64,000 nt of DNA from Clostridiales bacterium (lineage in GTDB: Bacteria; Bacillota; Clostridia; Christensenellales; CAG-138): positions 870-64,869 of the forward strand of contig JAILRE010000009.1 in NCBI GenBank assembly GCA_024698505.1, in the 5' to 3' direction. The translations under genes and the position numbers were made by a program. Shown here in pieces: positions 34,685-37,865 of the stretch (positions are counted from its first letter, which is position 1; every line of letters begins with the position of its first letter). The notes below the pieces were generated by a model. It was not told the DNA's origin, ran no database searches, and saw only the letters and a program-made list of their open reading frames with translations.

Positions 34685-35641
34685 TCAATCGAACGTCTTT
34701 CCGTCGCATCTGTCGCGGAAGATCCAGGTCCTGCCGCCGTCCGTCGTTTCAAACCAGACGTCGCAGGTATCGGGGTCGTACTCATCCCTGCGGTCGGAAG
34801 CAACGTAAACGGGGATCACCCCGTGATCGCCGTTGAATACAGGAACGAGATACTGCGGCGCGTAGAAATAAGGCCTGACCTCTTCCGGAAGATCAAGATC
34901 CGCCATATGGCTCCACGTCTTTCCGCCGTTGAACGTGGCGTAAACGCAGGAATCGAAGATGGTCGTATCGTGACTGCACTCGGTGAAATTGTAGCAGATG
35001 AAGGCTGTTTTCTCATCCTTTACGCATGCACCGGTTATCCCGAGACCGCCGACCTTCTCCTCGGGGCGATCCATTCTCTTCCAATTGCCTTCATCGTCCA
35101 AATACCACAGCAGGAAGTCGTCCACCATATCGGGCCAGTAGGGGATGGCGGCGAAGTTATCGCCGATATAGCCGAAAAGATTTGGGCGCTCATCCCATGT
35201 TTCCTTGGGCGCCGGCGCAATGAGCTCTGCCGGCAGAGTTCGGACGAGACGCATTTTCGTAAGCGTCTCGTCGGTCTCGTAAACGCCGAGCCCATCCTCG
35301 GTTTCTTCAAGCAGATAAATGCACTTGTTGACGTGCACGAGGATATCGGAGGTCTCACCGTTAAGGAGCGCGGCGCAAAGAGCATAGTATTCCTCCTCAA
35401 CGGCGGCAAAGGGCTCGTCGGTAGCGGGGACCGCCGTATCCTCCGGCGTCTCCGTCGGCGCGGGCGGGGTCGTCTCAAGGACCGTGGGGGAGGGCGTATC
35501 GAAAGCTGCCGCAGCCTCGGTCGGGCTTAATGAGGGTTCCTCGCTCCCGTCGCTCGGGCGGTTTCCGTGCGGCGTGCAGGAGACGAGGAGGATCAGCGCA
35601 AGCACAACGGCAGGCAATGCATACAAAGATTTCTTTTTCAT
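34685..35641 (-). CDS. Lipoprotein with C-terminal Asp-box-like (DGGxTW) motifs; paralog of 55956..56993
   Basis: Lipobox LILLVSC, a PT-rich linker, then FNGGKTW and FETTDGGRTWIF. Confidence 0.7.
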   Translation of the reverse strand: MKKKSLYALPAVVLALILLVSCTPHGNRPSDGSEEPSLSPTEAAAAFDTPSPTVLETTPPAPTETPEDTAVPATDEPFAAVEEEYYALCAALLNGETSDILVHVNKCIYLLEETEDGLGVYETDETLTKMRLVRTLPAELIAPAPKETWDERPNLFGYIGDNFAAIPYWPDMVDDFLLWYLDDEGNWKRMDRPEEKVGGLGITGACVKDEKTAFICYNFTECSHDTTIFDSCVYATFNGGKTWSHMADLDLPEEVRPYFYAPQYLVPVFNGDHGVIPVYVASDRRDEYDPDTCDVWFETTDGGRTWIFRDRCDGKTFD

Positions 35642-35800: not shown

Positions 35801-35828
35801 TTGACATTTAGAACAAACGTGTTATAAT
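35801..35828 (+). promoter_or_regulatory. Promoter (TTGACA-16-TATAAT) with an overlapping GAAC-type operator; leaderless configuration
   Basis: AGAACAAACGTGTT at 35810-35823 abuts the -10. The ATG at 35835 is 6 nt after the -10. A second GAACAAACG lies at 35838-35846. Confidence 0.55.
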
Positions 35829-35834
35829 ACAGAT

Positions 35835-37865
35835 ATGGAACAAACGAGCGAAAGAACCTATATCTGCATCGACCTGAAATCCTTCTACGCGTCCGTCGAG
35901 TGCGTGGCGCGCGGGCTGGATCCGCTCGGCGTGAATCTTGTCGTCGCGGATGAGACGAGGACGGAAAAGACGATCTGCCTTGCCGTCTCGCCCTCACTGA
36001 AGGCTTACGGGATATCCGGCAGGGCGCGCCTTTTCGAGGTGGTGCAGAGGGTCGCGGAGCTCAATTCCGACCGCAGGTATGCGGCGAGGGGCAGGAAGCT
36101 CACGGGCTCCTCGTGGGTGGACGCCGAGCTGAAGGCCGATAAGAGCCTCGCGATAGACTATATCGTCGCTCCCCCGCGCATGGCGAAATACATGGCGGTC
36201 AGCACGCAGATCTACAACATCTATTTAAGGTACATCGCGCCGGAGGATATCCACGTCTATTCGGTGGACGAGGTGTTTATCGACGCCACGAATTACGGCA
36301 GGCTCTACCGCATGACCCCGCGCGAGCTGGCGATGAAGATGATAGGGGACGTACTCAATGAGACGGGCATCACGGCGACGGTAGGCATAGGCACGAACAT
36401 GTACCTTGCCAAGATCGCGATGGACATTGACGCGAAGCACATGAAGCCCGACGAGAACGGCGTCCGCATCTCCGAGCTGGACGAGATGAGCTACCGCAGG
36501 CGGCTCTGGTCGCACACGCCGATAACCGATTTCTGGCGGATAGGGAAGGGCATAGCAAGGCGGCTCGACGAATACGGCATACGGACGATGGGGGATATCG
36601 CCCTCTGCTCCGTGGCGGACAAGCGCAGCGCCCTCAACGAGGATTTCCTCTACAAGCTCTTCGGCATAAACGCGGAGCTTCTGATCGACCACGCCTGGGG
36701 GTACGAGCCCTGCACCATGGCGGACGTGAAGGCCTACCGCCCGCGGACGCACAGCCTCAGCCTGGGGCAGGTGCTGAAGGAGCCCTACGAATTCGAAAGG
36801 GCGAGGCTGATAGTGCGGGAGATGGCGGACGACCTCTCGATGGACGTTTTCGCGAAGGGCCTCGTCACCGATCAGGTGGTGCTGACGGTCTGCTACGATA
36901 CGGAAAACGTGCGCGATCCCGAGAGGCGGAGGCGCTACAAGGGCCCCATAGAGGCCGACGGCTACGGCAGGCAGGCGCCCAAGTCCGCCCACGGCTCGTT
37001 CAATCTGCCCATGACCTCCTCGACGAAGCTCTTCACCGAGGGCGCGGTCGCGCTTTTCGACAGGATAGCTGACAGGTCGCTCACGGTAAGGCGGATATAC
37101 GTCGTCGCGAATCATACCGTGCCGAAGGAAGCCCTGCCGAGCGGCCCCGTTTACGAGCAGCTCGATCTTTTCACCGACCCGGAGGAGCAAAAGCGCGCCT
37201 TCGAGAGGGAGCGCTTCGCCCGCGAAAGGGAGGAGCGCCGCCAGGACGCGCTCGTGAAGATACGCGGCAAATTCGGCAAGAACGCCATTCTGAAGGGCAT
37301 GAACTACGAGGAGGGCGCCACCTCGATAGAGCGCAACGGCCAGATAGGCGGCCACCGCGCGGGCGATCCCGAGCAGGGCGGCCAAACGCCGGGAGGCGTA
37401 AAAAAAAACAGTACCGGTGGCACAACGTGCCCCTGTGAATATGAGGAGGACGGCATGAGAAGGGGAGAAGACGCCTACGAGGAGATAATCGGTCTGCCGC
37501 ATCACAAGTCCGCGGAAAGGCCGCATATGTCAAATTACGACAGGGCGGCGCAGTTCGCCCCCTTCGCGGCGCTCACGGGATACGAGGAGGCGGTCTCGGA
37601 AACGGCCCGCCTGACCGAACAAAAGCCCGAGCTGGACGAGGACGAGAAGCAGCTCATAGACGCATGGCTCCGAAGGCTGAGGCAGGATCCCGGCTCGGTG
37701 GATGCGGGCGTGACCTACTTCACGGCCGACAAGCGCAAAAAGGGCGGCGCGATACTTGAATCGAAGGCCGCCGTCGCCGGGATAGACGAACACGCCCGCG
37801 CCGTCGTATTCGAGGACGGAACGAGCGTGCCGATAGACGATATAATCGCCGTGGACGGGGAATGA
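35835..37865 (+). CDS. Y-family DNA polymerase (UmuC/DinB-like) read through into a YolD-like C-terminal module
   Basis: 676 aa. N-terminus ICIDLKSFYASVECVARGLDP, polymerase core to about aa 510, then after the A9 tract an internal SD (GAGGAGGA) plus ATG 37455 and YolD-like HMSNYDRAAQFAPFAALTGYEEAV. Confidence 0.8.
   Translation: MEQTSERTYICIDLKSFYASVECVARGLDPLGVNLVVADETRTEKTICLAVSPSLKAYGISGRARLFEVVQRVAELNSDRRYAARGRKLTGSSWVDAELKADKSLAIDYIVAPPRMAKYMAVSTQIYNIYLRYIAPEDIHVYSVDEVFIDATNYGRLYRMTPRELAMKMIGDVLNETGITATVGIGTNMYLAKIAMDIDAKHMKPDENGVRISELDEMSYRRRLWSHTPITDFWRIGKGIARRLDEYGIRTMGDIALCSVADKRSALNEDFLYKLFGINAELLIDHAWGYEPCTMADVKAYRPRTHSLSLGQVLKEPYEFERARLIVREMADDLSMDVFAKGLVTDQVVLTVCYDTENVRDPERRRRYKGPIEADGYGRQAPKSAHGSFNLPMTSSTKLFTEGAVALFDRIADRSLTVRRIYVVANHTVPKEALPSGPVYEQLDLFTDPEEQKRAFERERFAREREERRQDALVKIRGKFGKNAILKGMNYEEGATSIERNGQIGGHRAGDPEQGGQTPGGVKKNSTGGTTCPCEYEEDGMRRGEDAYEEIIGLPHHKSAERPHMSNYDRAAQFAPFAALTGYEEAVSETARLTEQKPELDEDEKQLIDAWLRRLRQDPGSVDAGVTYFTADKRKKGGAILESKAAVAGIDEHARAVVFEDGTSVPIDDIIAVDGE
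37400..37408 (+). repeat. A9 homopolymer at the polymerase/YolD-like junction
   Basis: Nine consecutive A residues. An A8 version would end the polymerase at the TGA overlapping ATG 37455 (ATGA). Confidence 0.95.

Follow-up and report, generated by a model that had tools for sequence, protein, structure and literature searches.

A conserved nine-adenine tract between a Y-family polymerase and a YolD-like protein as a candidate programmed slippage site in rumen Clostridia

We analysed a 64,000-nucleotide stretch of a metagenome-assembled Clostridiales bacterium genome (GenBank assembly GCA_024698505.1, contig JAILRE010000009.1, positions 870 to 64,869 of the forward strand; hereafter, the window), in which one open reading frame (ORF) of 676 codons joins a Y-family DNA polymerase to a YolD-like protein across a run of nine adenines (A9). 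The explanation that we favour, with a probability of roughly 55%, is that A9 is a conserved and selected programmed slippage site, which would give a polymerase–YolD fusion, a free polymerase and a free YolD-like protein. The tract, its codon phase, a short tail encoded in the −1 frame, an internal Shine–Dalgarno (SD) sequence with its start codon and the fused frame are all conserved among relatives, and alleles with eight (A8) and ten (A10) adenines occur naturally; beyond this, we infer RNA-level slippage in this organism, the ratio of the products and the function of both. The initial annotation of the window had considered a homopolymer sequencing error, a recent fusion or a slippage-controlled switch between fused and separate products, and the comparative data support the last of these.

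Direct reading placed A9 at 37400–37408 as the longest homopolymer of the window (59% GC), inside the single 676-amino-acid ORF and upstream of an SD at 37443–37450 and an ATG at 37455; the ORF and these positions agree with the initial annotation. Ten species-level lineages from a single genus of rumen Clostridia carry an identical A9 in the same codon phase, amounting to about 36 distinct fused proteins (counted as cluster members) on dozens of contigs, with the tract present in at least 16 independently assembled contigs drawn from NCBI, ENA, JGI and Logan. The exact phase, NNA AAA AAA AAN, occurs in this genome, P0122–P0129, G001, G009, G012 and L084, and A9 is also present in contigs L047 and L067. 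G001, G009 and G012 are three other species of the same genus with a fused frame, and a database search with the whole fusion revealed eight more fused clusters (656–692 amino acids; Logan, ENA and NCBI), each with exactly nine adenines in its DNA; in one lineage (P0129), a G follows the run and there is one extra codon. Metagenome and genome contigs were also scanned for the junction pattern with A8 to A12 allowed, which returned 80 matches, mostly due to chance, and the 6 true junctions among them were all A9 (three on additional junction contigs). Fused relatives are recorded from sheep and goat gut ('Clostridia bacterium'). Gene order around the junction is syntenic (aminomutase, B12-binding subunit, polymerase, small protein, 184–195-amino-acid protein and MatE), and some syntenic species (L001 and L002) carry two overlapping genes without an A-run.

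The fused sequences span a genus radiation with about 70% amino acid identity; within our comparative set of 11 diverged fused sequences, including this genome, pairwise identity was 0.72 for amino acids and 0.56 at third codon positions. In a tree of the polymerase core, tract-bearing sequences fell into four well-supported groups interleaved with two-gene lineages, implying at least three changes. A single origin was rejected (approximately unbiased test, p=0.0013, at a cost of 31.8 log-likelihood units), although this p-value is lenient because the tract-bearing group was named after seeing the tree. Since tract-bearing polymerases do not form one clade, the arrangement is old and has persisted through the radiation of the genus, and we reject the initial suggestion of a recent fusion. 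Judging from the tree, repeated loss or transfer by recombination has also occurred.

Two-gene layouts prevail in the wider family. In two such relatives from the same genus, L010 (G006) and L011 (G010), the polymerase ends EKAG-TAG and YolD starts at TTG after GGGAGGTG. Their tails (EKNSDDEKAG and EKKCEEGEKAG) seem to align loosely, by eye, with the 0-frame KKN-S/D-T linker, which points to the 0 frame as the ancestral one for the polymerase. Low-GC relatives L033 (P0152) and P0154 carry independent polymerase–YolD fusions of 663–670 amino acids with no A-run, in which the IGGHKA stop has been lost and the frame continues via the internal GGAGG-ATG into YolD; we set these apart as a different case. 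The contig multiplicity of L033 is low (multi_3.0), and an assembly error is possible there.

The A9 tract is conserved beyond coding needs and is held against codon bias. Lysine codons in this genome are 78.5% AAG and 21.5% AAA, but the tract nevertheless reads AAA AAA. Of the 11 invariant lysine columns in the comparative set, only the two that belong to the tract read AAA in every sequence; the other nine are AAA in 0–3 of 11. The codon that leads into the run can be GTA, TTA or GCA, meaning that the amino acid varies but the final A never does, and TTA accounts for just 1.3% of leucine codons. The two-gene relative L010 has AAG AAG in the matching tail region. Finding only four A/T runs of at least nine nucleotides in the whole 2.03-Mb genome indicates that the tract is more than chance, and A9 is the only one of the four inside a long ORF. 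The other three (C20:45686, C30:60056 and C32:26641 in G000) appear to be intergenic, as stops occur nearby in every frame.

No part of the protein varies more than the linker that surrounds the tract, yet this linker contains two invariant islands, the A-run and T-GGC-AYA-AC. The second island encodes Trp-His-Asn in the −1 frame, within a short tail that is likely to be coding on the basis of its substitution pattern. In every lineage the −1 frame reaches a stop after 10–15 codons, and the predicted tails (KKKQYRWHNVPL, KKKRYTWHNVPL, KKKRNKWHNVYI, KKKRPKWHNVCI, KKKRYKWHNVYL, KKKERPRWHNIPL, KKKRYGWHNVYY and KKKRRRWHNE(C)) follow the pattern KKK[QRE]x(x)[RKTG]WHN[VIE][PYC][LIY]-stop, or KKK-x3-WHN-V/I-x-L in outline. 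Synonymous differences in this frame (GTG CCC CTG TGA, GTT CCC TTA TAG and ATC CCG CTC TGA; CAC versus CAT) alter 0-frame residues and, in P0124, create a +1-frame stop. Overall, the synonymous fraction of codon differences was highest in the −1 frame (0.26), followed by the +1 frame (0.19) and the 0 frame (0.08). The 0-frame column preceding the invariant T-GGC-AYA-AC varies (G/D/P/S/A) with its third base fixed as T, against a background of 7/179 columns. ACA is fixed in the island though it represents 8% of threonine codons, and the third base is kept in only 14/101 invariant four-fold columns. Together, the third-base T, the fixed ACA and this low background fit a first-position constraint on −1-frame codons.

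The conserved alternative frame is the A10-like one with the WHN tail rather than the A8 layout that the initial annotation had stressed as the textbook arrangement. An A8 version does stop at the TGA overlapping the YolD ATG (ATGA), as had been stated, giving a 540-amino-acid polymerase that ends VKKTVPVAQRAPVNMRRTA; across lineages, however, the +1 frame (A8 or A11) ends at ATGA in 9/11 and its peptide is not conserved. The A10 stop lies at 37436–37438, one nucleotide from the 37435–37437 originally given. In all lineages the 0 frame stays open and leads in phase to the YolD ATG, and its peptide after the tract is not conserved. Distances from tract to ATG are 46, 49 or 52 nucleotides, always 1 mod 3, which indicates that indels occur in threes and preserve the fused frame. 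GGAGG and the ATG are invariant in all lineages, so YolD can still be made alone; a fusion lacking this internal start, which the initial annotation would have taken as the sign of a stable fusion, was seen in none of the orthologs.

Two other readings of the junction were discarded. The sigma-54 promoter consensus is TGGCAC-N5-TTGC, and TGGCAC occurs in the island, but the junction sequences have no −12 element at the spacing that this consensus demands. Read from the minus strand, the tract region (37411–37423) presents a weak hairpin followed by T9 and was flagged as terminator-like. We rejected an intrinsic terminator there (37423–37411), as the hairpin is not conserved by eye and lies about 560 nucleotides past the end of the convergent gene.

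In the mechanism that we propose, the A9 site sits in a disordered, genus-specific linker, past all functional modules of the polymerase, and translation of the genomic frame would yield the covalent polymerase–YolD fusion with the predicted junction peptide NSTGGTTCPCEYEEDGMR. RNA polymerase would stutter on A9, mostly adding one A, and translation of such transcripts would enter the −1 frame. The resulting product would be a free polymerase of 534 amino acids and 60.5 kDa with a short basic/aromatic tail (KKK-x3-WHN-V-x-L), formed here by the three lysine codons of the tract plus QYRWHNVPL, ending VKKKQYRWHNVPL and terminating 16 nucleotides before the YolD start. In transcripts with two extra adenines or one fewer, the polymerase would terminate at, or close to, the ATGA where YolD begins, and free YolD (15 kDa) would be made from its own conserved SD and ATG. 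A −1 shift of the ribosome on A_AAA_AAA would have the same outcome but is less likely. One SOS-induced, probably leaderless transcript could in this way supply a putative Gram-positive counterpart of the Pol V pair both with and without the tether.

By analogy with characterized sites, slippage is probably transcriptional rather than ribosomal. Bacterial RNA polymerase slips efficiently in vivo on nine A's or T's, and the run of Thermus thermophilus dnaX mainly gains A's, with about half of the product full-length and stops near in both non-zero frames (PMC5009743). At the locus described here, gain of one A, which would be the most frequent slippage outcome, leads into the frame that carries the conserved tail. 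The tract includes the slippery heptamer A_AAA_AAA, which is in frame in all lineages, but no conserved downstream RNA structure was detected by RNAalifold on the 11 sequences (0 pairs), and single-sequence folds differ between lineages. A GGCAC-AAC-GTGCC hairpin was considered as a stimulator and set aside, being present in this genome and P0122 but not conserved elsewhere. Upstream hairpins were considered as well, since slippage can be mediated by stem-loops: GC-rich stems are predicted there in all lineages and abut the run in about 4/11 (dot-bracket reading), with no conserved register. GGGAGG is found 3 nucleotides upstream of the run here and, by eye, does not recur in the flanks of the other lineages. 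The genome carries both tRNA-Lys UUU and CUU, and having two tRNA-Lys species may favour shifting during transcription rather than on the ribosome (Atkins et al., PMC5009743). The lack of conserved downstream structure, the two tRNA-Lys species and the match to the features cited above from the review favour programmed transcriptional slippage.

Programmed transcriptional slippage at a 9-nucleotide A/T run is documented for T. thermophilus dnaX, which encodes tau and gamma (Larsen et al. 2000, via PMC5009743 and PMC3711429). Both loci have nine coding-strand A's, a long product in the genomic frame, near stops in both non-zero frames, no need for downstream structure and an organism with two tRNA-Lys species. 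Unlike dnaX, which encodes a clamp-loader, the locus described here encodes a translesion polymerase and an accessory subunit, and its long product fuses two subunits that are separate genes in relatives. In addition, an SD and ATG precede its downstream module separately, its −1 tail is conserved and its slippage is deduced from sequence. Escherichia coli dnaX instead uses a −1 ribosomal frameshift at A_AAA_AAG, with an upstream SD-like element and a downstream hairpin. The in-frame A-rich heptamer is similar (the run followed by G in P0129 gives A_AAA_AAG itself), and in both cases the shift yields a truncated product ending soon after the site. In contrast to E. coli, no conserved downstream hairpin was predicted and no conserved upstream SD-like element was seen by eye across our lineages, and nine A's are conserved where seven would suffice. 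In Citrobacter rodentium tssM, transcriptional frameshifting reportedly occurs at a poly-A run and gives two length variants. That case resembles the one proposed here in that RNA polymerase slippage at a poly-A run inside a bacterial gene yields two length variants, but it concerns another gene family, and its genomic frame is interrupted so that slippage restores the long form, whereas here the genomic frame is itself the long form.

An alternative is a stable fusion, in which the 676-amino-acid protein would be the sole relevant polymerase product, free YolD would come from the internal start, the A-run and island would be conserved for other reasons (as a linker or as a DNA or RNA element) and slipped products would be noise. 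We consider this unlikely. The fused frame is indeed open and in phase in every A9 lineage, the low-GC fusions in P0152 and P0154 indicate that fusion as such is viable without an A-run, and ImuB is regarded as an analogous fusion (PMC6511836). However, a stable fusion leaves unexplained why the tract reads AAA AAA in a genome where 78% of lysine codons are AAG, why A is always the last base of the preceding codon, why the 0-frame synonymous sites of GGC ACA ACG are frozen amid varying 0-frame residues, and why the −1 frame varies synonymously and always stops within 10–15 codons.

Tract length does vary among close relatives. L025 is A8 and 99.2% identical to the A9-bearing G009, and a G001-like species contains both A8 (L115) and A10 (L114) at 98.6–98.7% identity to the A9 form, which has about 9 members. 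The A10 allele of L114 encodes a homologous WHN tail, which makes a WHN-tailed polymerase with a separate YolD a natural genomic state. Free YolD was called on 2 contigs (P0249) from a G012-like cluster, implying further non-A9 alleles, for a total of 3 verified and 2–3 inferred alleles versus the roughly 36 distinct fused proteins. Since A9 is the commonest length in each lineage and some 90% of sequences are fused, we read A8 and A10 as recurrent, unfixed variants of a mutable tract.

These alleles could also indicate a DNA-level phase-variable (contingency) locus, at which replication slippage among A8, A9 and A10 is itself what the tract is selected for, as a heritable switch between the fused and two separate-gene layouts. 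Length polymorphism between closely related strains is indeed seen, with all three lengths in one G001-like species, A8 beside A9 in a second and more implied by P0249, and each state gives a plausible gene layout. Still, we judge such a locus less likely than programmed slippage and about as unlikely as a stable fusion, while giving it appreciable weight. Free switching should let the modal length differ, but it is A9 in all 10 species-level lineages; a single length is clearly preferred, with about 90% of distinct sequences fused, and neither A8 nor A10 is fixed in any lineage. Some minority alleles are possibly consensus errors in low-coverage metagenome contigs. Moreover, an expressed A9 would slip at the RNA level too, meaning that phase variation and RNA slippage are not exclusive. 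Finally, a homopolymer sequencing or assembly error in this genome, concealing a true A8 or A10 with two ordinary genes, is highly improbable: homopolymers are error-prone and two-gene layouts are usual in the wider family, but the identical A9 recurs in the independent assemblies and 10 diverged lineages described above, and the fused frame is kept through indels in multiples of three.

Several observations weigh against programmed slippage. The A8 and A10 alleles, found in about 10% of strains, are DNA-level changes that could themselves be the switch. The −1-frame signal comes from about nine codons in related, non-independent lineages, for which reason we grade coding in that frame as likely and not as proven. 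The tail is shortened to WHNE or WHNEC in the G012 and P0125 lineages, and the existence of two-gene relatives without it means that it cannot be essential. It is possible that the invariant TGGCAYAAC is instead a nucleic-acid element, and slippage in this organism is argued by analogy with other species. In an AlphaFold2 model of the fusion, YolD was not confidently docked against the polymerase tail (residues 484–542 have low confidence), and the model lends a functional gain from tethering no support either way.

On sequence grounds, the polymerase belongs to the SOS-type Y family and resembles UvrX and YqjW. Its N-terminal ~500 residues match Pfam IMS (E=7.3e-27), IMS_C (5.5e-6) and IMS_HHH (6e-4), as well as an NCBIfam Pol IV subfamily (2.6e-43, under its curated cutoff), and by eye the catalytic motifs IDLKSFYASVE and SVDE fit the Y-family pattern. 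A YolD-family gene lies directly downstream in the same operon, both at this locus and in relatives, an association described for UvrX/YqjW-type polymerases (PMC6511836). The YolD-like part itself has a weak match to Pfam YolD (PF08863; E=0.024, 15.1 bits versus a cutoff of 27.5), but this family was matched by 26/38 of its close homologs at an E of 0.01 or better (best, 9.5e-7). There are also 5562 free-standing homologs of about 140 amino acids, covering 93–100% of the 136-amino-acid YolD-like product. A PDB sequence search with a YolD-like profile returned no meaningful relative. In the AlphaFold2 model, the predicted local distance difference test (pLDDT) score is ~90 for the polymerase core and ~80–87 for the YolD module, where five strands are predicted between residues 623 and 674 (pLDDT 80–87), a possible beta-rich, SH3-like core. 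Residues 509–542 score below 50 (26–36), and the tract-encoded KKN (residues 523–525) falls in this disordered stretch after the polymerase core, so all three products would retain every known polymerase module.

The operons YqjW-YqjX and UvrX-YolD of Bacillus subtilis are considered a putative Gram-positive counterpart of Pol V (PMC6511836). The locus described here resembles them in its polymerase, where a clamp-type motif and a helical region are accompanied by a C-terminal tail that is conserved, in the YolD-family gene directly after it and in an SOS-type operator candidate upstream. In B. subtilis, however, these are two separate genes with no recoding or fusion, whereas here a genus-specific A9 linker joins both. 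A permanently fused case is ImuB, which is catalytically dead and works with DnaE2. According to a proposal in PMC6511836, ImuB is a Y-family-like protein covalently joined to a small beta-rich accessory module, ImuB-C. The polymerase described here is similarly fused to a small module that is predicted to be beta-rich but, unlike ImuB, has catalytic motifs that match the Y-family pattern by eye, and its fusion is conditional on the tract.

We tentatively propose, at somewhat less than even odds, that stuttering on A9 sets a fixed ratio between a single-chain 'mutasome', in which the polymerase is tethered to a YolD/UmuD-like subunit, and the free WHN-tailed polymerase; recoding would then be seen for the first time in an operon for a translesion polymerase. 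With YolD also made separately from its internal start, an assembly with a 2:1 YolD:polymerase ratio, as in UmuD'2C, could form. Poly-A slippage recoding is well known from dnaX, insertion sequence (IS) elements, tssM and mxiE. For a Y-family polymerase or a YolD gene, targeted literature searches found no report of it. PMC6511836 reports no fusion or recoding for the YqjW-YqjX and UvrX-YolD operons, and neither the recoding survey PMC3711429 nor the review PMC5009743 mentions Y-family polymerases.

Programmed slippage at this site, if true, would place a DNA-damage-tolerance system among the few cellular genes that recode into two products, and it is of particular interest that a mutagenic polymerase and its putative accessory subunit are tethered in the genomic frame. 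A genus-wide fusion provides a Rosetta-stone argument for physical partnership of YolD with UvrX/YqjW polymerases and bears on the question of a UmuD-like role raised in PMC6511836. Should the mutasome proposal hold, the natural fusion would be direct genetic evidence for this still unproven partnership. The fusion is also a ready-made single-chain construct for biochemical and structural work.

The features of the locus are listed in Table 1. The polymerase ATG lies 6 nucleotides past the end of the −10 element, so the mRNA is probably leaderless. AGAACAAACGTGTT in the promoter spacer and a repeated GAACAAACG, whose second copy lies at 35838–35846 just within the polymerase ORF, look like an SOS/LexA-type operator. 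The putative clamp motif fits the general consensus QL[SD]LF (PMC6511836) and, being upstream of the slip site, is retained in all products. Most related polymerases terminate at IGGHKA-stop, and the sequence beyond IGGH is a genus-specific extension. The YolD-like ATG is in frame with the large ORF (residue 541), and ATGA (37455–37458) doubles as the stop of the +1 polymerase frame.

Table 1 Features of the polymerase–YolD locus (window coordinates)
Feature	Position	Strand	Remarks
Genomic (0-frame) ORF: Y-family polymerase, disordered linker and YolD-like module	35835..37865	+	676 aa, 75.8 kDa
Perfect sigma-70-type promoter: TTGACA, 16 nt, TG-TATAAT	35801..35828	+	12/12 matches plus TG extension
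GAAC-type (LexA/SOS-like) operator candidate AGAACAAACGTGTT, between −35 and −10	35810..35823	+	sequence reading; putative
QLDLF, residues 442–446, beta-clamp-type motif	37158..37172	+	fits consensus QL[SD]LF; binding role putative
IGGH, residues 504–507, end of conserved polymerase C-terminal tail	37344..37355	+	
A9 slippery tract	37400..37408	+	0 frame GT-A AAA AAA AA-C (V K K N)
−1-frame (A10-mRNA) tail QYRWHNVPL plus TGA stop at 37436–37438	37409..37438	+	
Invariant nucleotide island TGGCACAAC	37418..37426	+	TGGCAYAAC across lineages; Trp-His-Asn in −1 frame
Internal Shine–Dalgarno GAGGAGGA	37443..37450	+	5 nt upstream of ATG here; GGAGG core in all lineages
YolD-like gene with own start, 136 aa, 15.0 kDa	37455..37865	+	ATG 37455–37457

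Annotation of these loci is inconsistent, as they are recorded as 676 amino acids or as 540+140 amino acids and often as 'DNA methylase', and A8, A9 and A10 alleles would be misread as pseudogenes or errors. NCBI attaches the 'DNA methylase' label to many of the Y-family polymerases here (P0129, P0133, P0143 and others), which appears to be a propagated misannotation; the JGI label is 'DNA polymerase V'. Upstream, between the lysine aminomutase operon and the polymerase, the window contains a minus-strand ORF of 318 amino acids (34685–35641), which is also found in the contig of P0122 (L026). At the same position, G009 (L099) has about 1.5 kb that is absent from the 99%-identical L025, indicating a variable insertion site.

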